Position numbers and translations under genes: made by a program. Source: an uncultured Gammaproteobacteria bacterium (GTDB lineage Bacteria; Patescibacteriota; Patescibacteriia; Magasanikbacterales; UBA922). From it: 64,000 nucleotides of DNA. Below the pieces are notes generated by a model. It saw only the letters and a list, made by a program, of their open reading frames with translations, searched no databases and had not been told where the DNA came from. The stretch lies in NCBI GenBank assembly GCA_964592785.1, contig CAZQHU010000001.1, forward strand, positions 45,687-109,686, in the 5' to 3' direction. Within the stretch, counting starts at the first letter, position 1. Each line of letters starts with the position of its first letter. This document shows positions 13,109 through 53,802 of the stretch, one piece after another.

Positions 13109-14065
13109 AACAATAATACTCTTGGTTGGGGAGTGAAGTCAACAGCTGGCGCTGAGATCTGGGATAGTGAGCCAATTTTTAAAAATGAAAAAATAAATTA
13201 TAAAGATTGGCTCAAACTTCTTTTTTATCCTAAGAAATGGTTTTTGTATCGCTGGGTGAAGAGCGGGGTGAACAAGGTGGAAAAAGAAAATAATATTGTT
13301 AGAGTGTTAGACGTAGGATGTGGCACAGGCGCAAGTCTAGTTGATTTTAAAAGAATTTTTGGTAGAAAAGTTGAGGTTTATGGAGTAGAGGTGGTGCGTT
13401 TGCAAGTAGATTTGGCCAAAGAAAAAATAAGCAAATATGGAGTCTGGTCAGAAGTGAAGTGGTATGATGGGCAAGAATTGCCTTTTTCAGAAAATTATTT
13501 TGATGCTATATATACTTCTGATGTTTTGGGCCATGTGGCTGATGTGCGTTCTTGGCTTGGTGAATTGAATAGGGTTTTAAAATCTGGTGGAACTTTAGCG
13601 ATGTTTGCTGAATCAAAGCTCGGCAAGCACGCTTACATTCGCAATTATTTATCTGAGCATGGTTTGAATGTTGATCCTCATGCTGAGTTTCATATCTCAC
13701 TTTATTCCAAAAATATTTTACAAGAATATTTGGAAGCAGCGGGTTTTCAAATTAAAAAAATGTATAGTGCTTTTTGGGCAAGTTTTTTGGTGCATCCAGA
13801 TGAGTTTTATCATGCATTACAACGTCATCCTGAGCGAAGCCCACAAGGCGGAGTCGAAGGATCTCTTAGTTCTCGGGATGTTTCGGCTTTGCTCAACATG
13901 ACAATTAGAATTTTAAAATTTATTAATAAAGTTTTGTATAAAATCAAGAAAAAACTCCATCCCTATTCTACAGCTTTGTGTGAGTTGTATGGTTTGGTGG
14001 AGATGTATTTGGTTGGTAGATTTGTAGAAGCCCAAGGATATGTGATATTGGCTAAGAAGAAATAA
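13103..14065 (+). CDS. Class I SAM-dependent methyltransferase with an in-frame family-1 repeat insertion (13834-13875)
   Basis: VLDVGCGTGASLVD motif I; insertion translated as HPERSPQGGVEGSL. Confidence 0.6.
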   Translation: MQNNNTLGWGVKSTAGAEIWDSEPIFKNEKINYKDWLKLLFYPKKWFLYRWVKSGVNKVEKENNIVRVLDVGCGTGASLVDFKRIFGRKVEVYGVEVVRLQVDLAKEKISKYGVWSEVKWYDGQELPFSENYFDAIYTSDVLGHVADVRSWLGELNRVLKSGGTLAMFAESKLGKHAYIRNYLSEHGLNVDPHAEFHISLYSKNILQEYLEAAGFQIKKMYSAFWASFLVHPDEFYHALQRHPERSPQGGVEGSLSSRDVSALLNMTIRILKFINKVLYKIKKKLHPYSTALCELYGLVEMYLVGRFVEAQGYVILAKKK

Positions 14066-26865: not shown

Positions 26866-26894
26866 TTGACATTTTTTTTGATAGTTGTAAGATA
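26866..26894 (+). promoter_or_regulatory. Sigma70-like promoter TTGACA-N16-TAAGAT
   Basis: Read directly; near-identical to the promoter at 41985-42012. Confidence 0.45.
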
Positions 26895-26923
26895 AAGTTA
26901 TCTCGTTGGCATGGAGGTGCCAG

Positions 26924-27070
26924 ATGGATTCGATCAGTCCTGGATGGGTGGTCATTGGCCTGGTGGGTCTGTTCATCTTCGGATTTCTCATCCGGAGGGC
27001 AGTGACAGTGCACCGCCACAACGCGCGCGTCTCGGATTCCGAGAAGAAGACGGAGGAGGCGACGTGCTGA
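26924..27070 (+). CDS. Small hydrophobic peptide (48 aa; single TM then a basic/acidic tail), GC-rich island D
   Basis: GGAGGtgccagATG ribosome-binding site; MDSISPGWVVIGLVGLFIFGFLIRRAV...; own promoter and terminator. Confidence 0.4.
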   Translation: MDSISPGWVVIGLVGLFIFGFLIRRAVTVHRHNARVSDSEKKTEEATC

Positions 27071-27147
27071 AGGTCGCCACACCCGAGTGCAGTCGGGTGA
27101 AGTTTCGTAGGAGTGGGCGCGTACTGCATAGCGCGCCCCTTCACAAC

Positions 27148-27186
27148 AAAAAACCACCTCGAATTTTCGGGGTGGGTTTATTTTAG
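27148..27186 (+). terminator. Intrinsic terminator after the small peptide gene
   Basis: AAAAAACCACCTCGAATTTTCGGGGTGGGTTTATTTT. Confidence 0.6.
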
Positions 27187-27458
27187 GGAAGTACAGAGGG
27201 TGTCACCAGACACACCCCCTGTACGAGAAAGGAACGGTTTTCCTCAATACGTTGGGTTCAAGGAACCCTGTCTTTGTCCACGGCACAAGAGCAAGTAACT
27301 GGAAATGGGGGTTGGGGCTCAAGCATCGTCGGCATGAGACGGGGTTGGAACAGGCACAAGGCACTGCGACGAACCACAGACGTATGGGCGGCGAGGAAAC
27401 TGGCAATCGTATTAGACCATGATTTTTCTAAAAAGTAAACTTATTTTGTGGATAAAAA

Positions 27459-27718
27459 ATCCCCGCGTCAAATGCGGGGTTTAAAAATGAGGCGTCCCGG
27501 GCGACGGAGCAAGGTGCCTCCGTCGCCCGGGGAAAGGAACACGTCAGTTCAGCATGAGGGCACTTACGTCCCCTTAGTTAAGGGCGGGGTCATCACACCT
27601 CGCGCCCGTAGCCACACTGGTCTTTTTCTTTTGGTTCACTCGTCGCTACTACAAAAGAGGTTGGGCAGGCGCAGAACGCGCCCTCAACCGGATCCAGTTT
27701 TGAACCGACTGAACTGAC
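27459..27718 (-). ncRNA. Candidate structured RNA of about 260 nt on the minus strand (12-bp terminal closing helix ACGUCAGUUCAG/CUGAACUGACGU, a large GC hairpin, and a terminator)
   Basis: Promoter-like TTTACA-N17-TTAAAT at 27725-27760 on the minus strand; terminator CCCCGCATTTGACGCGGGGATTTTTT. Confidence 0.3.
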
Positions 27719-27798
27719 GTTACTATATTTAAACACATTATATTTAATTTGTAAATGCCTTGATTTTTTAGTTTGAAAAGAGTAAAATAAGATTAAAT

Positions 27799-28578
27799 AT
27801 GTTAAATTACGCTAAACAAATTACCAAAGAAGCCGGCAAATTGGCTTTGGGTTATTATAAAGATGGGGTTGCTTTTAAAGTAAAAAGTGAACCAAGTGAT
27901 CTTGTTACCGAAGCTGATACTGCTGTTAATGATTTTTTGGTTAAGAAAATTAAGAAGAAATTTCCTAAACATGGAATTATTAGTGAAGAATTGGAAGAAC
28001 CAATAAATTCTCACGCTGAGTATGTTTGGGTGTTGGATCCCATAGATGGCACAGGAAATTTTGCTGCTCATATCCCAATGTGGTGTGTGATGGTGGGGAT
28101 TGAAAAGAAAGGCAAGCCTTTTATTGGGGTTGTTTATGATCCAATACAAGATGAACTTTATTATGCTGAAGCAGGCAAGGGTGCATTTTTAAACGGTAAA
28201 AAAATCCATGTCAATAACAAAGAGAAAGTTGATTTTAGTTTTTTGTCAGTTTGTCCTGGGCGCTATATGCCGGGTAATCCTTATTCATCAGAAGAATATC
28301 CAAGATATGCTAAATTTTTACAAAATTTAATGGGTGATAAAGGTTTTTGGTTTACTTATTATCGTTGTAATATTTCTTTTTGTCATTTGGCCAAAGGCAG
28401 TATTGATGGAGTAATAATGAATGGTTGTCTTTATCATGATTATCTGGCTCCCTATGTGATAGCTACCGAAGCTGGGGCCAAATTTACCGATAGCTATGGT
28501 AAGAAGTGGACCAAAGAGAAGAAGGATTCAGTCATTGCCAATCCCAAAATGCATAAAAATTTGCTTCGTTTATTCTGA
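27799..28578 (+). CDS. Inositol monophosphatase family protein (SuhB/IMPase-like)
   Basis: WVLDPIDGTGNF motif. Confidence 0.75.
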   Translation: MLNYAKQITKEAGKLALGYYKDGVAFKVKSEPSDLVTEADTAVNDFLVKKIKKKFPKHGIISEELEEPINSHAEYVWVLDPIDGTGNFAAHIPMWCVMVGIEKKGKPFIGVVYDPIQDELYYAEAGKGAFLNGKKIHVNNKEKVDFSFLSVCPGRYMPGNPYSSEEYPRYAKFLQNLMGDKGFWFTYYRCNISFCHLAKGSIDGVIMNGCLYHDYLAPYVIATEAGAKFTDSYGKKWTKEKKDSVIANPKMHKNLLRLF

Positions 28579-28671
28579 ACGAAGTGAAGAATCTTTTTTA
28601 AATAATTAAATATTCATCTAAAATGTGCGAGGTAGGAAAGATCCTTCGCTTCGCTCAGGATGACTGGCAGT

Positions 28672-31600
28672 ATGTCAAAATACGATCATAAAAAAATTGA
28701 AAGTAAATGGCCCGCCTCCGCTAAAGCTACGGCGGGTAAACACTATGATCCGAAGGCTATTGAAAATAAATGGCAATTATTTTGGGAACGTGATAAAACT
28801 TTTGAAGTTACTGAGGATGAAACTAAAAAGAAATTTTATGTTTTGGATATGTTTCCTTATCCTTCTGGTGCTGGTCTTCATGTTGGTCATCCGAAGGGCT
28901 ATATTGCGACTGATGTTATGGCTCGCATGAAAATGATGCAGGGCTTCAATGTTCTTCATCCAATGGGTTGGGATGCTTTTGGACTTCCAGCAGAGAATTA
29001 TGCAATTGCGAATAAAGTTCATCCTTCGGTGGCGACAGCCAAAAATATTGAAACTTTCAAAAAGCAACTGGGTTTACTAGGTTTTACTTATGATTGGGAG
29101 AGGGAAGTGAATACTACTGATCCAAATTATTACAAATGGACCCAGTGGGCCTTTATTCAAATGTTTAAGCGTGGTTTGGCTTATGAATCTTTTGAACCGA
29201 TCAACTGGTGCCCCACTTGTCAGACTGGCCTTGCTAATGAAGATCTTGAAGATGGTAAGTGCGAACGTTGTGGCACTTTGGTCGAACGTAAGCCATTACG
29301 TCAATGGGTTTTGAAAATTACAGATTATGCTGAAAGATTATTAAATGATATTGATAAATTAGAACAATGGCCAGAACCGATCAAAGAAATGCAAAGAAAT
29401 TGGATTGGGAAGAGTGAAGGTGCAGAAATAAACTTTCGCGTCATGTTGAGCGAAGTCGCGTCGGACGCGACGAAGTCGAAACATCCCGTGGAACAAAGGG
29501 ATCCTTCCCCGCAAGGCGGGGCTCAGGATGACGATGTGGTGCTTACAGTTTTTACCACTCGTCCTGACACTCTTTTTGGGGTAACATATATGGTCGTTGC
29601 TCCTGAACATCCGTTGCTCGGGAATAATGAATTAGGAATTAAGAATTATGATGAAGTGTTGGGGTACATTGCCAAAGCAAAAAACAAATCAGACTTAGAA
29701 CGTACAGAATTACAGAAAGAAAAGACTGGAGTCGAGTTGAAGGGAGTGAAGGCAGTCAACCCAGTGAATGGCGAAGAGATCCCTATTTTTGTAGCGGATT
29801 ATGTTTTGATGAATTATGGCACTGGAGCCATCATGGCTGTGCCAGCACATGATGAGAGAGATTTTGAGTTTGCAAAGAAGTTTGGTTTGCTAATGAAAGA
29901 AGTAGTAGTTGAACAAGTAAATTCTCGTTTTAGTGATTCTGAGCCACGCAGAATAGCTATAGCCATTGTTGAAAATGATAAAGGGGAAATTCTTATACAA
30001 TCAGATACCCGTAATAATAAAACCACTTATTGTTTGCCAGGTGGGGGGGTAGATGAAGGAGAAGACATTAGAGAGGCATCTTTGAGGGAAATTAAAGAAG
30101 AGACGGGTTATATCGAATTTGAGAGTATAAAGAAAGTGGGAACTTTGGAAGCAAATTATTACAATCCTAGAAGAGAAATTAACCGACAAGCTTTAGCCAC
30201 CTGTTTTTCAATGAAATTAAAAAGTAATAAAAAGATAGAAGTTCAATTTTCTGAAACAGAAAAACAAGGGTTGATTAAACACTCTTGGTTGAGTAAGGAG
30301 GAAGCAATGAAAGTTTTATCAAGCGAAAATGCTTCTTCTGGTGAGGATCTTGCTTTATTTAAACGTTATTTGAAGAATAAAGATGAAGCCTTTTCAAATT
30401 TAGGTGTTGTTATCAATTCTGACTTCTTAAACGGCTTAGAAACAAGAGACGCCAAAGAAAAAATGATTCAATATTTAGAAGAAAAAAATATTGGTAAAAG
30501 AAAAGTGCAATACAAACTTCGTGATTGGGTATTTTCTCGTCAACGTTATTGGGGTGAACCAATTCCGCTTGTTCATTGTGAGAATTGTGAGAATAAAAAA
30601 TATAATTATATTTTTATTCATGGTTTTTCTTCAAGTTCTGAAAGAGGTTTTAAACCTTGGTTGAAAGAAGAATTAGAAAACAGAGGTCATAAGGTTTGGA
30701 ATCCTGATTTACCAAATACCAATAATCCTAGTGTTAATGAACAAGCTGAATTTATTTTGAAAAATTCACCATTTGCCATTGATGATAATTTAGTTTTGGT
30801 TGGACACAGTTTGGGTGGACCAGCGATTTACCGAATTTTAGAATCAATAAGCCACAAGATTGCTCGGGCTGTTTTGGTTGATCCGGTAGTTCGTCCACGA
30901 TTTAATGATCAAGATCGTCCAGAAGTGGTGGCTAGTTGTGATTGGAAGTTTAATTGGAAAAAAATAAAAAATAATTGTCAGCAATTTATTATTTTGGGTG
31001 ATATAAATAGACCAATTATAAAAAAGGAACATTTAATAGAGTTAGAAAAAAATCTATCAGCTGATTTATGGTGGGTGACTCCAAGAAATTATCATTTTAG
31101 CAGTCGTAATGGTGCAGTAGAAGATGAACCGACAATATTAAAAGCGGCCGTAGCTAATGGCTGGATTCCAGTTCCAGAAAAAGACTTGCCACTGGAACTT
31201 CCCAAAGTAGAAAACTATGAACCAAGTGGAACAGGGGAATCACCTTTGGCCAATATTGAAGAATGGGTGAATACCAAGTGTCCGGTGTGTGGTGGGCATG
31301 CTAAACGAGAAACAAACACTATGCCGCAGTGGGCGGGAAGCTGTTGGTATTACCTACGCTATTGTGATCCGAAGAATAAAAAAGAATTAATTAATAAAGA
31401 AAAAGAAAAATATTGGAATCCAGTGGATCTTTATGTTGGTGGAGCAGAACATGCTACTCGTCACCTCATCTATGCTAGATTTTGGCATAAGTTTCTTTAT
31501 GATATTGGCGTAGTTTCTCATGAGGAGCCATTTATCAGATTACAAAATGTGGGTTTGATTTTGGCCGAAGATGGTCGCAAGATGAGTAAGCGCTGGAATA

Positions 31601-32250
31601 ATGTAATTAATCCTGATGATGTTGTTGCAGAATATGGTGCGGATGCCATGCGACTTTATGAAATGTTTATGGGTCCATTTGATCAGCCAGTAGCTTGGAG
31701 TACTCAGGGAGTGGTAGGGATGAGAAGGTTTTTGGAGAAGGTATGGGCACTCAAGTCAAAAGTTCATAAAGTCGAAAAGTCTGTAAAGTCTAATATTGAT
31801 ACCTTATTACATCAAACTATCAAAAAGGTATCTGAAGATATTGAAGCCATGCGATATAATACAGCCATCTCTCAAATGATGATATTGGTAAACGAAATGA
31901 TCAAAGAAGAAAAATTATTCCTTACTCATTATTCTTTATTCCTTCAATTATTGTCACCGTTCGCTCCACATATAGCCGAAGAATTATGGAGTGAATTGGG
32001 AAATAAAGAATCAATCTTCAAATTTGATTGGCCAAAATATGATCCAGCTTTGATTCAAGACGAAAAGATTACTATTGCCGTACAAGTAAATGGTAAATTG
32101 CGTGATACTTTTGATATTCCAGTTGATATGTCTGAAGAAGAAATTAAAAAATTAACTCTGTCATCTGAAAAAGTTCAAAAATGGCTAGAGGGTAAAGAGC
32201 CAAAGAAAGTTATTTATGTGAAAGGTAGGCTAGTGAGTGTGGTGGTGTGA
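28672..32250 (+). CDS. leuS: Leucyl-tRNA synthetase with an inserted NUDIX domain (about 29944-30390), an inserted alpha/beta serine-hydrolase domain (about 30598-31160), and several in-frame short-repeat insertions. The ORF track start at 28660 is an alternative
   Basis: HVGHPKGY (HIGH), CP1 editing domain TTRPDT, KMSKR; Nudix box GGGVDEGEDIREASLREIKEETG; hydrolase IFIHGF...GHSLGG; both insertions are flanked by LeuRS segments conserved in other bacteria (RDWVFSRQRYWGEPIPLVHC, IPVPEKDLP). Confidence 0.9.
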   Translation: MSKYDHKKIESKWPASAKATAGKHYDPKAIENKWQLFWERDKTFEVTEDETKKKFYVLDMFPYPSGAGLHVGHPKGYIATDVMARMKMMQGFNVLHPMGWDAFGLPAENYAIANKVHPSVATAKNIETFKKQLGLLGFTYDWEREVNTTDPNYYKWTQWAFIQMFKRGLAYESFEPINWCPTCQTGLANEDLEDGKCERCGTLVERKPLRQWVLKITDYAERLLNDIDKLEQWPEPIKEMQRNWIGKSEGAEINFRVMLSEVASDATKSKHPVEQRDPSPQGGAQDDDVVLTVFTTRPDTLFGVTYMVVAPEHPLLGNNELGIKNYDEVLGYIAKAKNKSDLERTELQKEKTGVELKGVKAVNPVNGEEIPIFVADYVLMNYGTGAIMAVPAHDERDFEFAKKFGLLMKEVVVEQVNSRFSDSEPRRIAIAIVENDKGEILIQSDTRNNKTTYCLPGGGVDEGEDIREASLREIKEETGYIEFESIKKVGTLEANYYNPRREINRQALATCFSMKLKSNKKIEVQFSETEKQGLIKHSWLSKEEAMKVLSSENASSGEDLALFKRYLKNKDEAFSNLGVVINSDFLNGLETRDAKEKMIQYLEEKNIGKRKVQYKLRDWVFSRQRYWGEPIPLVHCENCENKKYNYIFIHGFSSSSERGFKPWLKEELENRGHKVWNPDLPNTNNPSVNEQAEFILKNSPFAIDDNLVLVGHSLGGPAIYRILESISHKIARAVLVDPVVRPRFNDQDRPEVVASCDWKFNWKKIKNNCQQFIILGDINRPIIKKEHLIELEKNLSADLWWVTPRNYHFSSRNGAVEDEPTILKAAVANGWIPVPEKDLPLELPKVENYEPSGTGESPLANIEEWVNTKCPVCGGHAKRETNTMPQWAGSCWYYLRYCDPKNKKELINKEKEKYWNPVDLYVGGAEHATRHLIYARFWHKFLYDIGVVSHEEPFIRLQNVGLILAEDGRKMSKRWNNVINPDDVVAEYGADAMRLYEMFMGPFDQPVAWSTQGVVGMRRFLEKVWALKSKVHKVEKSVKSNIDTLLHQTIKKVSEDIEAMRYNTAISQMMILVNEMIKEEKLFLTHYSLFLQLLSPFAPHIAEELWSELGNKESIFKFDWPKYDPALIQDEKITIAVQVNGKLRDTFDIPVDMSEEEIKKLTLSSEKVQKWLEGKEPKKVIYVKGRLVSVVV

Positions 32251-34894: not shown

Positions 34895-34995
34895 CGTCAT
34901 TCTGAGCGAAATGAGCGTTAGCGAATGTAGCCGAAGAATCTCGTCTAGAAAGGGATCTTTCGACTTCGTTCACTCCGTTCACTTCGCTCAAAATG
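34895..34995. repeat. Two inverted family-1 repeats (GTCATTCTGAGCGAA...TTCGCTCAAAATGAT) in an intergenic spacer
   Basis: Read directly; same unit as the in-frame intragenic copies. Confidence 0.65.
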
Positions 34996-35004
34996 ATGAG
35001 TATG

Positions 35005-35907
35005 AAAAAATTTATTTTCATAATTTTTATTTTACTTTTGATAGTGCTTGGTTTATTGTGGAAAATAAAAAGTGAGTCGTCACCCAATCTAGCTGTAGAG
35101 ACGATAGCAGAAGAAACAGAAAAAAATTTAAAAATTACTTTCCTAGACATTGGACAAGGGGATGCTAGTTTTATTGAATTTATTGATGGCCAGCAAATGC
35201 TCATTGATTGTGGGATTGATGCTAGAATCTTGGAAGCTCTAGGCAGGGTAATGCCTTATTATGACAGAGTAATAGATTATTTAGTTGTCACTCATCCGGA
35301 CAATGATCACTACGGTGGCTGTATAGATGTTTTGGATAGATTTGAAGTGAAAAATATTATTTATAATGGCCTAGAAAAATCTGCTGATAAATTTTGGCAA
35401 GAATTTTGGCAGAGAATAGAAAATGAAAATGCCAATTATTTTAAGATTGAAAAATTAGATGTTTGGGAAGTTGCAAGTACAACTATGACTTTTTATTATC
35501 CCAATCATGATTTGGCAGAAAATTTAAACATTCCTGGGAGTGATAAAAAAGCCAGTGATAATAATACTTCTATAATTTTTGAATTAAATTATCTGGGCCA
35601 TGAAATTTTGTTTACTGGTGATATGGAAGAGACTTTGGAAAAATATTTATTAAGTGTTTTTGCCGAGAAACTTGATAGTGATATTTTGAAAGTCGGGCAT
35701 CATGGCAGTGCCACAGCTTCAAGTCAGGAATTTTTGAAAATAGTCTCTCCCAAGTATGCTGTAATTTCTACAGATAAAAATAATAAATTTGGTCATCCTT
35801 CACTTCGGATTTTGAAACGATTGGAACGTTCTGAAACAGAGATTTTACGAACAGATTTGCAGGGTGATATTGTCTGTGAAATTGGGGAGCAAATAAGTTG
35901 CCAATAG
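35005..35907 (+). CDS. Metallo-beta-lactamase-fold protein, ComEC C-terminal-domain-like, encoded separately (ORF track start 34993)
   Basis: FLDIGQGDA...VVTHPDNDHYGG...VGHHGS motifs. Confidence 0.7.
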   Translation, partial: KKFIFIIFILLLIVLGLLWKIKSESSPNLAVETIAEETEKNLKITFLDIGQGDASFIEFIDGQQMLIDCGIDARILEALGRVMPYYDRVIDYLVVTHPDNDHYGGCIDVLDRFEVKNIIYNGLEKSADKFWQEFWQRIENENANYFKIEKLDVWEVASTTMTFYYPNHDLAENLNIPGSDKKASDNNTSIIFELNYLGHEILFTGDMEETLEKYLLSVFAEKLDSDILKVGHHGSATASSQEFLKIVSPKYAVISTDKNNKFGHPSLRILKRLERSETEILRTDLQGDIVCEIGEQISCQ

Positions 35908-45989: not shown

Positions 45990-47642
45990 TTAAACCAGTT
46001 TTTTCGTCATATAGGTTTTTTCTAGTTTGTAGCCAAGTTTTCGATAATAATCTCTTACTCCCACGCCAGAAATTACTGCGATTTTTTGGTATTTATTTTT
46101 CTTGGCGATTTTCTCGGCTTCAGCTACCATTTTTTTTCCCAGGCCTTTGTGTTGACTAGCAGTCTTTTCATCTTTGCCAACGTTGACCAGTTGACCGTAA
46201 GTGTGGAGTTCGCGGATGAAAGCCAAGTTTTCTAAGTTTATTAAGTTTTTTAAGTTGACTAAATTATTTTGATTTGGAAGTCGGAGACGGAGAAAAGCGA
46301 AGACTACCTGTCTTTTGTTGTCTTCAAAAGAGAGAAAATATTCTGTACCACCAGTAGTTTTATATTTTTCTATAAATAGTTTTGGTTCAAGTGTTTTTTT
46401 GTTTTTATGTTTTATTGCTTTTATGTCAATATGCCCAACTTCTCGACAACGGAGACAATGACAGACAAGACCACGTTTGCTCATTTCTTTTTTTAATTCT
46501 TCGCGTAGATTGGTGATAGCGTTGCCAGCTTCGATATCAGGATTGGGGATGTCGCGAATAAGACGAGAAATACGGCAATAGCGTGGCGTGGCAGTCTTCA
46601 TTTTTATGAGAGTTTCAAACAGTTTTTTATCTGAGTAAGGTTTGTATCTCCCGGCTTTATACCATTTATACAATTTTGCTGATTTGATCACTGTACAAGG
46701 ATAAATTTTTATCATATCTGGTTTGAATCCCGGATCAGAAAAAAGTAATTTATACATTTCTAAATCATGTTTTGGAGTGGTTCCTGGTAAATCTGGCATA
46801 AAGTGAAGATCTACTTTAAATCCAGCTTGGCGGAGCAGGAGCATAGCATCTTTGAATTGTTTTACAGTGTGTCCACGATCAACAAGTTTTAGTATTTTAT
46901 CATCCGGGGCTTGGAGACCAAGTTCAATCCTGGTACAGCCCATTTGTCGCATGTGAAAGATTGTTGTGGGATTGACAGCGTCGGGCCGAGTTTCTAGAGT
47001 GAGCCCGATGATGCGGTGTTTGGCTTTTTCATTTTTGCGTTGGGCTTCTCTCAGAGCTCTTTGTAGGGAAGAAAGGGATTCTTCGACTTCGGTCTTCGTC
47101 CTTCGCTCAGGATGACCAAAATCGTTGCATGCACGAAAAGACTCCAATATAAACCAATACTGGTACTTTAGCGGGTAGGCATTCCAAGTTCCACCTTTGA
47201 TAATAAATTCAATTTTGTCAGTTGGATGACCATTTTGTTCTAGCATCATTATGCGACGACGCATTTGTTCATAAGGGTCAAATTTTAGAGCCAAAGCCCG
47301 AGCAGCGGCCGGTTCACTAGATAAATAACTTTTGGGCATTTTTGTTTCAGTAGGACAATAAACACAATCTCCTGGGCAATTGTAGGGCTTAGTCAGGGAA
47401 GTAATGATAGCCACTCCAGAGAGGGTGCGGATCTGGGCTTTACGCAAGAAAAATTCAAACTGCTTGTCATTTTTTAGACTTTTATTTTTTAATAATTTCT
47501 GGTAAGCTAGTAACAGTTTATGATTTGCAGGTTGAGAAATTTTAAGTTTACCACAAATTTTTCGGCGCAGTTCATCAAATTCAACCTTGGATTTAGGCTT
47601 GTGTTCATAAATATAAATAATAATTTTTTCTAAATTATTCAT
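45990..47642 (-). CDS. Elp3-like radical-SAM / GNAT protein (tRNA U34 carboxymethyluridine synthase homologue) with an in-frame family-1 repeat insertion (47074-47118)
   Basis: CPGDCVYCP (CxxxCxxC) radical-SAM motif; C-terminal GNAT QHKGLGKKMVAEAE. Confidence 0.8.
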   Translation of the reverse strand: MNNLEKIIIYIYEHKPKSKVEFDELRRKICGKLKISQPANHKLLLAYQKLLKNKSLKNDKQFEFFLRKAQIRTLSGVAIITSLTKPYNCPGDCVYCPTETKMPKSYLSSEPAAARALALKFDPYEQMRRRIMMLEQNGHPTDKIEFIIKGGTWNAYPLKYQYWFILESFRACNDFGHPERRTKTEVEESLSSLQRALREAQRKNEKAKHRIIGLTLETRPDAVNPTTIFHMRQMGCTRIELGLQAPDDKILKLVDRGHTVKQFKDAMLLLRQAGFKVDLHFMPDLPGTTPKHDLEMYKLLFSDPGFKPDMIKIYPCTVIKSAKLYKWYKAGRYKPYSDKKLFETLIKMKTATPRYCRISRLIRDIPNPDIEAGNAITNLREELKKEMSKRGLVCHCLRCREVGHIDIKAIKHKNKKTLEPKLFIEKYKTTGGTEYFLSFEDNKRQVVFAFLRLRLPNQNNLVNLKNLINLENLAFIRELHTYGQLVNVGKDEKTASQHKGLGKKMVAEAEKIAKKNKYQKIAVISGVGVRDYYRKLGYKLEKTYMTKKLV

Positions 47643-50748: not shown

Positions 50749-51306
50749 TTATTTTTTAAATAGTTTTTGTTTGAATTCTTTTAATTTTCCTTGGTACTTT
50801 AATCTTAAAATATCAATTACCATATCCTGGGAACGAAAATTTTCTTTTAAAATAATTTTCATAAAGTCTTGAAAATTTACTTTCAAGATTTTTATTTTTT
50901 CTCCATTATCCAATGCTTGTTTTTGGATTGACACACAGTTACGAGCAACATAGTTATACATTGTCCATTCAATTTTATGATATAGTGCTTTGGTGGTAAT
51001 CAACTCCCAATCATTGGAAATACATCCGGATTCTTCCAAGAGTTCGCGTTTAGCTGCTTGGAGTGGTGATTCACCAGGATCAATTCGTCCACCAAAAACA
51101 GAATAAAAATAATTTTTATATTGTGGTTGTTTCTGTTTGGCTAAAAGAATTTTTTTATCTGAGGTCGTGGCAATAATTTGTACTGTATCTGGACGTTTAA
51201 GCATTTCAAAAGTAGCCATTGATCCATCATACATTTTTTGAGGCCATTGGTAAACATCAAAAATCACTCCTTTGAATACTCGTTTGGCTTGTTTGGGTAT
51301 TTTCAT
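50749..51306 (-). CDS. NUDIX hydrolase
   Basis: Nudix box GGRIDPGESPLQAAKRELLEESGC. Confidence 0.75.
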   Translation of the reverse strand: MKIPKQAKRVFKGVIFDVYQWPQKMYDGSMATFEMLKRPDTVQIIATTSDKKILLAKQKQPQYKNYFYSVFGGRIDPGESPLQAAKRELLEESGCISNDWELITTKALYHKIEWTMYNYVARNCVSIQKQALDNGEKIKILKVNFQDFMKIILKENFRSQDMVIDILRLKYQGKLKEFKQKLFKK

Positions 51307-51376
51307 AGTAATCTCGAGTCACAGCGAGAGATCCCTTTTCATTGGGTTAAACTTCGCTTAATTATTTATTATTGTT

Positions 51377-53017
51377 TTATATTTTAAAAAGGGATTCCTC
51401 ACCCTGTTGGGTTCGGAATTTTGAAATTAGTTCTTCAATCATTCCGCGGAAACCATGGCTACCACAAAAAACTATAGTAACCTTATTTTGTTTGATTAAA
51501 TAATTTACTAATTCTTCATCATCATCAATATATTTTACATTGGGGTGGGTCTTGGCAATGATTTTTGTCAGTTCGCTTCCTTCCCAGTGTTTTAATTTTT
51601 CTGAAGTTTTTAATTTGGTTAGTTTAGGAATAATTACTTCGTCAGCGTTTTCAAAAGCATTATTATAGCTTGGTTCAGATTGTGGTTGGCGATTGCCGGT
51701 ATTGGGTTCGAAGATGCAGAAGATTTTGGTTCTGTCATTTTGAGCCCCGCCTTGCGGGGAAGAATCCCGACGGGATCCTTCGTCACTTCGTTCCTCAGGA
51801 TGACGCTTGTATATGTTGGCTAAATTTTCCAAAACACTTTTGGCTTTGGCGGGGGAGTGAGCAATATCATCAAAAATAGTAATATTTTCATTTTCAAATC
51901 TTTTTTCCAGTCTTCTTTTTAGGCCTTGAAATTTAGCGATTGCTTGAATAATTTTTTCTGGTTCAATACCAATTTGGTGAGCCATGGCGAAAGCGCCGGT
52001 GATGTTTTCAACATTGTAAGAACCCAAGGTTTTAGTTTGTAGCTTATAGTTTTTAGAATCATGTATAATTTCAAACTGCAAACCAGATTTGTCCATTGTC
52101 ACATTGCCACATTGATACGTTGTCGATGGGGAAAATCCATATGTGATAATTTGGCAATTTGACAATTTGACAATGTTTTTTGTTTTTTCACCTGCTACAA
52201 TTATGCCATTCTTTGGCACAGACTTAATTAATTTTTCAAACGCCTGAAAATAACTTTTTTCAGTGGGATAAACATCCGCATGATCCCATTCTATGGCTGT
52301 CAAAAGCAGGTGAGTGGGGTGATAATGAAAAAATTTGGCGCCATCATCCCAGCGAGAAGATTTGTATTCATCACCTTCAAGTACTGACCAATCGTCATCT
52401 TGAGCGGATCCGCCAGTTGGCGGAGGAGTCGAAAGATCCCTTGTAAGAAGTAAGGGATTCTTCGACTTCGTCGCGTCTGGCGCGACTTCGCTCAGAATGA
52501 CGTTTCCTAAGCTAGCACTATCAAACTCATCAATCACAATTCCTCCAAACATATAACTGGGATTATAACCACATTCTGACAGGATAAAAGAGAGTAGGGC
52601 AGAAGTCGAGGTCTTACCATAGGTACCAGCACAAACAATTGAATTTTCTTTAACAAAATATTTTTCAATAGCTTCTGGATAAGATAAATAATTTAATTTA
52701 TTTTTTTGAACATAGAGCCACTCAGGATTTGTAGAACTAGCGACATTGCCGACTATTACTAAATGGTCATTTTTTCCTCCTTCGCTACCACCTTCGCCAA
52801 GGCTTTGGCGGTCAAGAAAGCTTCGGAGGACGAAGTCTGGATGCCAGCCTGGATAGAAATCTATCTGATGTTTTTCTAGATTGGTAGAAACTGGAGGAAA
52901 GAAACCGACATCAGATCCGGACACCTCAAAACCAGCTTTTTTGAAAGCTATAGCGAGAGCCGACATGGCTACTCCACAGATGCCGATGAAATGAATTTTG
53001 TGAATTTTGTTGTTCAT
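51377..53017 (-). CDS. murC: Mur ligase (MurC/Mpl-type) with three in-frame repeat insertions
   Basis: IHFIGICGVAMSALAIAFKKAGFEVSGSD N-terminus, GTYGKTSTS P-loop; insertions at 51734-51804, 52394-52503 and 52775-52838. Confidence 0.8.
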   Translation of the reverse strand: MNNKIHKIHFIGICGVAMSALAIAFKKAGFEVSGSDVGFFPPVSTNLEKHQIDFYPGWHPDFVLRSFLDRQSLGEGGSEGGKNDHLVIVGNVASSTNPEWLYVQKNKLNYLSYPEAIEKYFVKENSIVCAGTYGKTSTSALLSFILSECGYNPSYMFGGIVIDEFDSASLGNVILSEVAPDATKSKNPLLLTRDLSTPPPTGGSAQDDDWSVLEGDEYKSSRWDDGAKFFHYHPTHLLLTAIEWDHADVYPTEKSYFQAFEKLIKSVPKNGIIVAGEKTKNIVKLSNCQIITYGFSPSTTYQCGNVTMDKSGLQFEIIHDSKNYKLQTKTLGSYNVENITGAFAMAHQIGIEPEKIIQAIAKFQGLKRRLEKRFENENITIFDDIAHSPAKAKSVLENLANIYKRHPEERSDEGSRRDSSPQGGAQNDRTKIFCIFEPNTGNRQPQSEPSYNNAFENADEVIIPKLTKLKTSEKLKHWEGSELTKIIAKTHPNVKYIDDDEELVNYLIKQNKVTIVFCGSHGFRGMIEELISKFRTQQGEESLFKI

Positions 53018-53088: not shown

Positions 53089-53802
53089 TTATTTAAGGAT
53101 TTCTTTCAGCTCATTTAAACTATCACTCCATTTCTCACCATCAAACCATTCCAATCCTGTGAATTGTAGTTTGTAAGTGTCAGTTGGACGTTGGGCAGAT
53201 CCCAAGTAAATATATTTTTTATTATTTTCTTTGGCGTAGAGAATAGCTCGGAGCATCATACCCATGCCGAGGTTGGATAAACCGACCGTTAAAGAATAGA
53301 AAGGATAGGAGTAGTGTAGGATTTCGTTCGTTTCGTGACAGATGGCGTAGCCGATGATGAGGTCATCCTGAGCGGATCCGCCAGTTGGCGGAGGAGTCGA
53401 AGGATCCCTTTCTAACTCGGGATTCTTCACTTCGTTCAGAATGACGTATTTGAAAAGTTTATTAAAATTATGTTCAGTCGTTAATAATTCTTTTATCTTG
53501 TTGGCAGAAAAAACTCCTTTACCAAATTTAGTTTCGTAAAAATCTTTAGCAATTTTACCAATTTGCCAGTTGTAACTAGTAACTGGTAACTCGTAACTAG
53601 TAAATGTTAAGTTTTCAGTTTTTTTTAAAATGCGTTTATTTTCGCTTGACAATTTAAACTTGTTCAAATCAATTCGTAAACTTCGCGTTTGGTACATGCT
53701 TCCCAAGTGTTCGCGGGTGAATAAATAACCCTCGTTGTAGAGAGAGTTGATGTTGTCGTCGGAAAAATTAGTAGTAGTTTTTTCGTTCCATTTTAGGTAC
53801 AT
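53089..53802 (-). CDS. Ate1/Bpt-like aminoacyl-tRNA--protein transferase (tentative) with an in-frame family-1 repeat insertion (53363-53446)
   Basis: C-terminal YIYLGS...YKLQFTGLEWFDGEKW resembles the Bpt/Ate1 C-domain. Confidence 0.4.
   Translation of the reverse strand: MYLKWNEKTTTNFSDDNINSLYNEGYLFTREHLGSMYQTRSLRIDLNKFKLSSENKRILKKTENLTFTSYELPVTSYNWQIGKIAKDFYETKFGKGVFSANKIKELLTTEHNFNKLFKYVILNEVKNPELERDPSTPPPTGGSAQDDLIIGYAICHETNEILHYSYPFYSLTVGLSNLGMGMMLRAILYAKENNKKYIYLGSAQRPTDTYKLQFTGLEWFDGEKWSDSLNELKEILK

Follow-up and report, generated by a model that had tools for sequence, protein, structure and literature searches.

The leucyl-tRNA synthetase (LeuRS) gene, leuS, of contig CAZQHU010000001.1 carries two hydrolase cassettes within a single reading frame: a NUDIX domain nested inside the CP1 editing domain (site A), and a YdeN/RBBP9-type alpha/beta serine hydrolase placed where CP1 has just returned to the catalytic core (site B). 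Throughout, the window is the whole 64,000-nt stretch of this contig that was analysed, and coordinates are given as window positions; the span of the finding, 29944-31160, opens with the NUDIX Pfam match and closes with the hydrolase cassette. An earlier note on this DNA described the architecture in this one gene. The observation itself was borne out, but the window is one instance of a much wider modular phenomenon, in which NUDIX, alpha/beta-hydrolase, Ham1/ITPase and HAD cassettes are found at five or more loops of LeuRS in bacteria of the candidate phyla radiation (CPR). Judging from the pattern of divergence between strains, these cassettes are swapped by homologous recombination, along with flanking leuS sequence.

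The host gene and its two cassettes

The host appears to be the housekeeping leuS of a CPR bacterium, Magasanikbacteria-like to judge from its closest named relatives, with its LeuRS motifs intact. The earlier note described the gene as long (about 1190 codons) and continuous, in agreement with the uninterrupted frame of 1196 codons, and the encoded protein as a whole scores 1032 bits against TIGR00396 leuS_bact, for which the cut-off is 548.4. Its Pfam domains follow the order class I catalytic, PF13603 (aa 290-422), NUDIX, Ser_hydrolase/Abhydrolase_6 and anticodon-binding. In an 80-sequence alignment (A3), the invariant positions include H74, G76 and H77 of the HIGH motif; C184, C201 and C204 of the ZN-domain zinc knuckle, the spacing of which is that of the T. 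thermophilus-type motif (PMC13454842); T299, T300, R301, D303, T304, H397, D398, R400 and D401 of the editing motifs; C640, C874 and C877 of the second cysteine knuckle, with C643 almost so; and K974, M975, S976 and K977 of the KMSKS loop. The leucine-specific domain is absent, as KMSKR joins AEDGR directly (AEDGRKMSKR). The AlphaFold2 (AF2) model of the full protein has a mean predicted local distance difference test score (pLDDT) of 86.6 and a predicted template modelling score (pTM) of 0.79, and Foldseek aligns it to the E. coli LeuRS-tRNA structure 5on2_A with an expectation value (E) of 1e-75 and a target-normalised template modelling score (TM) of 0.86. The locus also shares its synteny with leuS genes that lack inserts, and this common position argues that it is the housekeeping copy.

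Within the ZN domain, the sequence CERC (29260-29271, aa 201-204) has Glu in place of the Trp of a Trp-Arg pair (W177-R178 in E. coli). This Trp is highly conserved and important in amino acid activation (PMC13454842); the Glu is invariant in the clade to which the window LeuRS belongs.

The NUDIX cassette begins approximately 20 residues past the editing Asp398. The earlier note placed it between CP1 and the leucyl-specific region; it is instead inside CP1, because the PF13603 match (187.6 bits) breaks off at profile position 146 of 185, having started at position 18, and the remainder resumes after the insert. The nesting is therefore on two levels, with NUDIX inside CP1, and CP1 itself inserted in the Rossmann fold. 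That the segment is a complete NUDIX fold with a canonical Nudix box, as first proposed from the sequence, is upheld by a PF00293 match (aa 430-549, E 6e-15) that reaches 55.9 bits where the gathering score is 21.1; by a box that fits the consensus GX5EX7REUXEEXGU exactly (G462 x5 E468 x7 R476-E477-I478-K479-E480-E481-T482-G483-Y484); by the AF2 model, in which the cassette has a pLDDT of 94.7 when modelled alone and about 90-97 within the full protein; and by 611 PDB NUDIX-type matches of the model at E<=0.001. Among the NUDIX cassettes of LeuRS relatives, which have a mean identity of about 28%, the Nudix box is kept in approximately 52 of 56, with its G, E and EE positions conserved.

The second insert had been assigned to the YdeN/RBBP9 type of serine hydrolase and located after HCENC and before GWIPVPE. 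Both points hold, and the placement can be refined to directly after the first CxxC (C640, C643) of the CxxC...CxxC pair. Ser_hydrolase PF06821 is matched at aa 651-748 with 30 bits, against a Pfam gathering score of 22, and Abhydrolase_6 PF12697 is matched as well, the two together spanning aa 651-754; compared by sequence with the PDB, the cassette comes closest to B. subtilis YdeN (1uxo, E 7e-8), followed by human RBBP9 (E 9e-7). The cassette contains the motifs IFIHGF, GHSLGG with Ser717, FxD with Asp750 and YHF with His812, and across the type-1 hydrolase cassettes the GHSxGG Ser, the FxD Asp and the HF His are invariant (S74, D107 and H169 in alignment A4). This FxD Asp aligns to within two residues of RBBP9 Glu108, the residue by which the alpha-amine of the substrate is anchored (PMC8866121). 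A further acidic residue, Asp781 (LGD781INRP), lies in the loop usual for the catalytic acid (Asp138 in RBBP9); an acidic residue is mostly present in this loop across type-1 cassettes, at a position that varies. In the full AF2 model the pLDDT of the hydrolase is about 90-97.

The hydrolase is also constrained at the sequence level. Strain L001, a syntenic Logan contig that is 99-100% identical to the window over approximately 14 kb, differs from it across this cassette at 32 synonymous and 14 non-synonymous sites, giving a ratio of non-synonymous to synonymous substitution rates (dN/dS) of 0.089, compared with 0.077-0.118 for the LeuRS core in the same pair. Purifying selection on the hydrolase is therefore as strong as that on the core. 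Taken with the high pLDDT and the retention of catalytic motifs in both cassettes, this marks the inserts as working domains and not as junk.

The inserts are internal to the synthetase and not fusions at a terminus, as the earlier note maintained: each is flanked by conserved LeuRS segments, and relatives without inserts have clean in-frame junctions, such as HCE(K/N)C[cassette]GW. In the AF2 model, both are predicted to fold confidently and autonomously, with the LeuRS core intact. Independent NCBI, ENA, JGI and Logan assemblies contain this very protein as well as many relatives built in the same way, so the architecture is not an artefact of assembly, and with the frame continuous this stands against a frameshift or a false join. 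Searches of the cassette borders for direct or inverted repeats and target-site duplications returned short, chance-level matches only; hence there is no transposon-like signature. Inteins were considered as a separate candidate and rejected, as there was no Hint or LAGLIDADG Pfam match, and the residues at the NUDIX (...KEVVVE/QVNS and ...NKDE/AFSN) and hydrolase (...HCENC/ENKK and ...AVAN/GWIP) junctions are wrong for splicing.

Distribution and exchange of the cassettes

The LeuRS survey comprised the 120 best matches to the window query, and is not a random sample; the named relatives were Candidatus Magasanikbacteria, Uhrbacteria, Parcubacteria and Patescibacteria. No large insert was present in 45 of these proteins, while 29 had an insert at site A only, 15 a hydrolase at site B only, and 20 inserts at sites A and B without another large insert; in the other 11, the CP1 hairpin or the LLxDLD/WPE site was part of the combination. 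NUDIX accounted for 51 of the 55 site-A inserts, the other four being a cassette of about 127 aa without a Pfam match (P0015, P0017, P0018 and P0037). The LLxDLD/WPE site holds either one NUDIX domain or two in tandem, and the N-terminal hairpin of CP1, just before TTRPDT, holds an alpha/beta hydrolase, a NUDIX domain or a Ham1/ITPase-like PF01725 domain (the last in P0093 and P0072). Insertions were also found before GGAEHA (187 aa in P0005) and at the C-terminus (159 aa in P0043), neither with a Pfam match, and a HAD_2 PF13419 cassette occupies aa 428-583 of P0299. The hydrolase is found at three different LeuRS sites, and NUDIX likewise at three.

A HMMER search with the window hydrolase returned 1208 relatives, and among the best 150 of these were 53 long host proteins, 41 of them LeuRS and one AlaRS. 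One of the 41 has an additional HAD domain, and another has the hydrolase at site A. In the AlaRS (P0273, a class II synthetase of 834 aa on a 5.7-kb contig), the hydrolase lies at aa 417-590, between the catalytic domain and the tRNA_SAD editing region. Of the best 80 loci among GTDB species representatives, 44 lie in LeuRS and 10 in the IleRS of Saccharibacteria, such that all 54 embedded loci are in LeuRS or IleRS; the other 26 stand alone as genes of about 190 aa in CPR bacteria and DPANN archaea. The LeuRS hosts in this set come from Magasanik-, Falkow-, Doudna-, Kaiser-, Kerfeld-, Gracili- and Peribacteria, Paceibacterota and Saccharibacteria, with the cassette mostly at the CP1 hairpin; the titles 'uncultured Gammaproteobacteria' and 'Iainarchaeum' probably denote mislabelled bins and were not relied upon. 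In the IleRS hosts (L020, L022, L023, L024, L026-L029, L031 and L035), the hydrolase stands immediately before the WTTTPWT editing motif, at the equivalent hairpin, so that in both synthetases the CP1 site is a few residues ahead of the T-rich editing motif. Among them is a 1695-aa IleRS (L022, 2390-7474) with a low-molecular-weight (LMW) phosphatase, a NUDIX domain and two serine hydrolases.

For most NUDIX cassette types there are free-standing NUDIX counterparts in CPR bacteria, proteins of about 160 aa with 40-58% identity to them, whereas the window's own type has only weak free-standing relatives. A search of the protein collection with the window NUDIX alone gave four weak matches and missed the parent protein, owing to a limit of the word index, and the cassette profile A1 was used instead. 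The context of three free-standing NUDIX loci is recorded as anecdotal and was not used as evidence: two had no aminoacyl-tRNA synthetase neighbour, and in the third (L005, 5562-8930), a single case of such adjacency, a pair of neighbouring NUDIX genes precedes the gene for a 705-aa ValRS by approximately 300 bp. Of this pair, P0126 belongs to the free-standing family nearest to the LeuRS cassettes.

The cassettes do not track the genes that hold them. On a neighbour-joining tree of 120 taxa, derived from p-distances over 786 core columns, the minimum number of state changes was 26 at site A and 23 at site B, values that recombination within the core may inflate. How far the cassettes have diverged shows no correlation with the divergence of the cores (Spearman -0.004 and 0.08). 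P0001 and P0002 are 93% identical in both the core and the hydrolase, and about 26% identical in NUDIX. NUDIX cassettes from the LLxDLD/WPE site cluster among those from site A. Elsewhere, presence or absence takes the form of a clean in-frame indel in genes that are otherwise uniformly 80-95% identical.

The comparison of the window with L001 resolves one such replacement. Synonymous divergence (dS) is 0 across aa 1-72 and 0.006 across aa 906-1196, and rises to 0.35-1.9 within the intervening tract, where identity is 63-77% in CP1 and approximately 50%, the level of unrelated sequence, in the NUDIX cassette. As the two NUDIX proteins are only about 26% identical, the strains hold different NUDIX cassettes at one site. 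The nearest relative of the window NUDIX is in P0035, a protein with the most distant core in the set (59%), and yet its similarity climbs to 84% in the CP1 segment adjoining the cassette, which is the footprint of import by homologous recombination. The only exceptions to the near-identity of L001 outside leuS are one intergenic indel and one other short tract. The latter, at about 34900-35700 (open reading frame 34993-35907), has 75-89% identity, and recombination imports are thus not restricted to leuS.

The earlier note listed two inserts, both of which stand, and overlooked a third. This is an in-frame insertion encoding aa 262-288 (27 codons at 29443-29523), made up of a dispersed, GC-rich palindromic mini-repeat of the GTCATCCTGAGCGAAG...hairpin...GTCGAAGGATCCC type in two units, and it is missing from the near-identical strain L001. 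It is predicted by AF2 to be disordered (pLDDT <50), and it occupies the CP1 hairpin in which relatives hold whole domains. Other copies of the repeat in the window are at 13824-13872, 47068-47116, 51734-51768, 52394-52502 and 53362-53428; for the inverted-repeat pairs I1, I4 and I16 the copies span 51734-51768, 52454-52502 and 53399-53428.

Possible roles of the cassettes

The cassettes may be clean-up or proofreading modules that act in cis beside the two LeuRS active sites, a reading to which we assign a probability of about 45%. Judged from sequence positions, they would be held next to the synthetic and editing sites. The serine hydrolase would cleave alpha-aminoacyl (thio)esters bearing a free alpha-amine, with mis-acylated tRNA 3' ends, released aminoacyl esters and homocysteine thiolactone from editing as candidate substrates; LeuRS, IleRS and MetRS reportedly make this thiolactone while editing homocysteine, according to the work of Jakubowski. 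NUDIX would hydrolyse nucleoside-polyphosphate by-products or contaminants, such as diadenosine polyphosphates (ApnA) made by synthetases or non-canonical or damaged nucleoside triphosphates. Placement within the synthetase would provide both matched expression and proximity in very small genomes.

Several considerations lead to this proposal. Firstly, aminoacyl (thio)esters are suggested as substrates because the chemistry of the YdeN/RBBP9 family fits the compounds that LeuRS, IleRS and AlaRS handle or set free. The aminopeptidase RBBP9 cleaves off one N-terminal amino acid by way of an acyl-enzyme intermediate, and acts only where the alpha-amine is free (PMC8866121). Valacyclovir, in which a nucleoside analogue is esterified with an amino acid, is likewise activated by RBBP9, as indicated by a reference in PMC7730578, and BPHL, a different valacyclovir hydrolase, cleaves homocysteine thiolactone efficiently (PMC4198189). 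Secondly, the main arguments for coupling to the synthetase are the independent and repeated placement of cassettes around CP1 in two paralogous synthetases, and the strong bias in the choice of host. Thirdly, for the NUDIX domain, the co-occurrence of Ham1/ITPase and HAD cassettes points to nucleotide 'house-cleaning'. The intact architecture, the retention of catalytic residues, the selection on the hydrolase and the modularity of the cassettes also count in favour of the proposal.

Other observations weigh against the same proposal. Among type-1 hydrolase cassettes, no conserved acid occupies the usual triad position. With the canonical CP1 editing site intact there is no obvious need for an extra deacylase, and some close relatives among the 45 proteins without any insert, such as P0011 (about 87% identity), manage with the core alone. 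A few of the long hosts are EngA-, SecA-, Inositol_P- or peptidase-containing proteins. The families involved are varied (NUDIX, Ham1, HAD, LMW-PTP and alpha/beta hydrolase), such that general 'house-cleaning' fits better than one LeuRS-specific chemistry. Nor does the NUDIX cassette reach the cut-off of any NCBIfam NUDIX subfamily, all being missed widely: variants of PRK00714 (RppH) score 23-31 bits against cut-offs of 116-139, and MutT scores 30 against 97.9. The structures nearest to it in fold (NudJ, MutT-like, Ap4A/Ap6A hydrolases, NudI and RppH, at TM 0.6-0.7) form an undifferentiated set, too generic for a substrate to be called. The best PDB sequence match is to a lupin Ap4A hydrolase, through an alignment of the Nudix-box region only; hence diadenosine tetraphosphate (Ap4A) is a possible substrate, for which these sequence comparisons offer no specific support.

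The main rival, somewhat unlikely in our judgement, is passive fusion, in which streamlined CPR genomes have come to house small hydrolases of the nucleotide 'house-cleaning' kind (NUDIX, ITPase, HAD or esterase) within permissive loops of their large essential genes. The cassettes would then be independent of LeuRS, the benefit would be co-expression or protection against gene loss, and recombination between alleles would shuffle them. This would accommodate the recruitment of several unrelated hydrolase families, the 40-58% identity to free-standing CPR homologues (with 26 of the 80 best GTDB loci free-standing), the ease with which close relatives dispense with inserts, and the occasional use of EngA and SecA as hosts; moreover, a repeat element that sits in frame in the same CP1 hairpin implies that such loops simply tolerate insertions. 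Against passive fusion stands the strong bias towards synthetases, which make up 42 of the 53 long hosts (41 LeuRS and one AlaRS) and all 54 embedded GTDB loci (LeuRS or IleRS). Both families have also been inserted independently at several sites around CP1 and the homologous IleRS hairpin, and this pattern as a whole is not predicted by chance or neutrality alone.

The proposal of clean-up in cis can be taken further, to a version that we regard as distinctly doubtful. The YdeN/RBBP9-like cassette might be an unrecognised alpha/beta-hydrolase proofreading or detoxifying domain of editing-type synthetases (LeuRS, IleRS and AlaRS), which would act at the place of their formation on alpha-aminoacyl (thio)esters such as mis-acylated tRNA or homocysteine thiolactone. 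The NUDIX, ITPase and HAD cassettes would join it in an 'accessory active-site' system on essential translation enzymes, one that varies between strains, is exchanged by recombination and may be driven by conflict with toxins that target aminoacyl-tRNA synthetases.

A role in immunity, as exchangeable modules, is improbable. In that case, the cassettes would destroy aminoacyl-nucleotide or nucleotide-analogue toxins directed against LeuRS or IleRS, namely Trojan-horse synthetase inhibitors like those of the agrocin-84/TM84 and microcin-C kinds, or would act on conflict molecules of another sort, and their diversity would be kept by frequency-dependent selection, which would explain the replacement of a cassette between near-identical strains. 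The 2.5-kb mosaic tract, with its unrelated NUDIX in strains otherwise 99-100% identical over 14 kb, is of the kind envisaged, as are the extreme diversity of the cassettes and the decoupling of their phylogeny from that of the host gene. The hydrolase chemistries suit aminoacyl-nucleotide analogues, and there is a precedent in TM84, a LeuRS-specific toxin with a dedicated self-immunity LeuRS (PDB 3zgz and 5ah5; PMC5059758). Against this, no defence-island context was seen at the locus; the hydrolase had no PADLOC match, and the weak match of the NUDIX (31 bits to the candidate model PDC-S07) is at the generic NUDIX level; the second divergent tract means that such tracts are not unique to leuS; and selection on the hydrolase is purifying and not diversifying.

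Finally, it is scarcely credible that the inserts are artefactual or non-functional, with the extra length due to an assembly error, a join that shifts the frame, decaying junk sequence, or an intein or similar element excised after translation: their GC content (0.29-0.34) is below that of their flanks (0.40-0.44), and one small insert truly is a repeat element, but the identical architecture recurs across many independent assemblies in an uninterrupted frame, without Hint or endonuclease Pfam domains or intein residues at the junctions, and with conserved catalytic motifs, high pLDDT and, in the hydrolase, a dN/dS of 0.089.

Aminoacyl-tRNA synthetases are among the most conserved enzymes, and to our knowledge catalytic extra domains within bacterial synthetases are rare and usually fixed. 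Here, an essential synthetase serves as the scaffold for interchangeable hydrolase cassettes over much of the CPR, including the IleRS of human-associated Saccharibacteria. If the cassettes act on the products of the synthetic or editing sites, as clean-up in cis would entail, they would represent a novel type of quality control in translation, or of damage control for metabolites; if they do not, they are still a clear natural case of nested insertion, with a domain within an inserted domain within a host. In either case, domains are exchanged between alleles inside an essential gene, which bears on how reduced genomes package functions, and the permissive sites in LeuRS and IleRS are relevant to protein engineering. 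Automatic annotation is also corrected, as some such proteins are labelled 'hypothetical'.

The surrounding locus and comparison with known systems

The features of leuS are collected in Table 1. Directly upstream is an Inositol_P (SuhB/CysQ-like) gene at 27799-28578. Across five loci compared, this gene was present alongside the hydrolase cassette (the window, L001 and L007) and absent where the cassette was absent (L008 and L009), and one protein (P0361) is a fusion of Ser_hydrolase with Inositol_P; this could be either a functional link or a coincidence. Further upstream, 26866-27183 contains a GC-rich segment (0.50-0.57) of approximately 270 nt that is non-coding in appearance and 99% conserved in L001, preceded by a promoter-like site (TTGACA...TAAGAT) and ending in a terminator hairpin. 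The segment is a candidate for a structured RNA, and Rfam yields nothing there above the gathering score. The adjoining 27187-27797 holds a strain-specific GC-rich insertion of approximately 520 nt with several strong GC hairpins, likewise without a significant Rfam match, in place of which L001 has just 88 nt. Elsewhere in the window, a separate free-standing NUDIX gene at 50752-51318 (-), with an open frame of 189 codons, matches the cassette profile weakly (35 bits), and the genome therefore has at least one further NUDIX enzyme.

Table 1. Features of the window leuS gene, with positions, strand and the evidence on which each is based
Feature	Position	Strand	Evidence
leuS, LeuRS hosting the inserts	28660..32250	+	single uninterrupted open reading frame, 1196 codons
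Recombination tract relative to L001 (~2.5 kb)	28877..31372	+	dS and identity profile
HIGH motif of the synthetic site, H74-V-G-H77	28879..28890	+	translation; alignment A3
ZN-domain zinc knuckle, C184-x2-C187-x13-C201-x2-C204	29209..29271	+	translation; alignment A3
In-frame insert of two mini-repeat units, N-terminal hairpin of CP1	29439..29532	+	inverted-repeat pairs I1, I4, I16
CP1 editing domain, N-terminal part: TTRPDT (aa 299-304), GTGAIMAVPAHDERD (aa 387-401, D398)	29527..29913	+	PF13603; A3
NUDIX cassette, aa 419-576, site A	29914..30387	+	PF00293; limits from insert-free relatives; AF2 model; fold matches
Nudix box, G462-Y484, GGVDEGEDIREASLREIKEETGY	30043..30111	+	consensus match in translation
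CP1 C-terminal remainder and return to catalytic core (GVVINSDFLNG...)	30388..30576	+	translation; aligns with insert-free relatives
First CxxC of second cysteine knuckle, C640-E-N-C643	30577..30588	+	translation; A3
YdeN/RBBP9-type alpha/beta serine hydrolase, aa 644-833, site B	30589..31158	+	PF06821; PF12697; PDB matches; A4; dN/dS; pLDDT
Partner CxxC, C874-P-V-C877	31279..31290	+	translation; A3
KMSKS loop, K974-M-S-K-R978	31579..31593	+	translation; A3

No description of this architecture was found in the full-text literature searched, and to that extent the earlier note was correct that it is not a described family. The sequences, however, have been public since 2016: a protein of Magasanikbacteria RIFOXYD2_FULL_41_14 (OGH95100.1 / A0A1F6PGA9) is annotated as a hypothetical protein or as Leucine--tRNA ligase, and JGI labels some others 'leucyl-tRNA synthetase/predicted alpha/beta hydrolase family esterase'. 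That synthetases can have accessory domains is already known. The new elements are the nesting in CP1, the hydrolase families involved, the breadth across CPR LeuRS and IleRS, and the exchange of cassettes.

The window protein shares with the bacterial LeuRS of known structure (E. coli, T. thermophilus and N. gonorrhoeae) the HIGH and KMSKS motifs, the ZN knuckle, the T-rich motif and Asp of CP1, and the anticodon-binding and C-terminal domains. It differs in being approximately 390 aa longer, through three in-frame inserts, and in the replacement of the ZN-domain Trp177 by Glu (CERC). Its AEDGRKMSKR segment resembles the GKDG linker of Mycoplasma mobile LeuRS (PMC3643597). In a survey of domain insertions (PMC13114784; Protein Sci 2026), aminoacyl-tRNA synthetases were frequent hosts, the LeuRS editing domain was a classic inserted module, and PF13603 was insertion-exclusive, with zero cases as a host. 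The window leuS is a counterexample, since PF13603 is here the host of NUDIX in a two-level nested insertion.

Each cassette also has free-standing counterparts. With small NUDIX nucleoside-polyphosphate hydrolases (ApnA hydrolases such as lupin 1f3y, Aquifex 3i7u and T. thermophilus Ndx1, as well as RppH, NudJ/YmfB and MutT-like enzymes), the site-A cassette has in common the canonical box and an alpha/beta/alpha fold in one domain of some 150 aa (TM 0.6-0.7). Unlike them, it is nested in CP1, falls under every subfamily threshold, is only 16-25% identical to solved NUDIX structures, and has other LeuRS cassettes as its nearest relatives. Similarly, the site-B cassette shares with YdeN and RBBP9 a length of about 190 aa, the minimal alpha/beta hydrolase fold, GHSxG and the His of the C-terminal HF motif, whereas it is embedded in a synthetase instead of free-standing, belongs to a type without a conserved acid at the canonical triad position, and has its own LPNTxxPxxxEQ motif.

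AlaX, YbaK and Dtd are free-standing trans-editing factors, and an IleRS with a GNAT domain is also known (NCBIfam NF040702). Both share with the proteins described here the principle of an accessory catalytic module joined to a synthetase or active alongside it. In contrast to both, the modules of the window type are internal and nested, have different folds (NUDIX, alpha/beta hydrolase, Ham1 and HAD), none of which is a known editing fold, and are exchangeable cassettes that vary between close strains.

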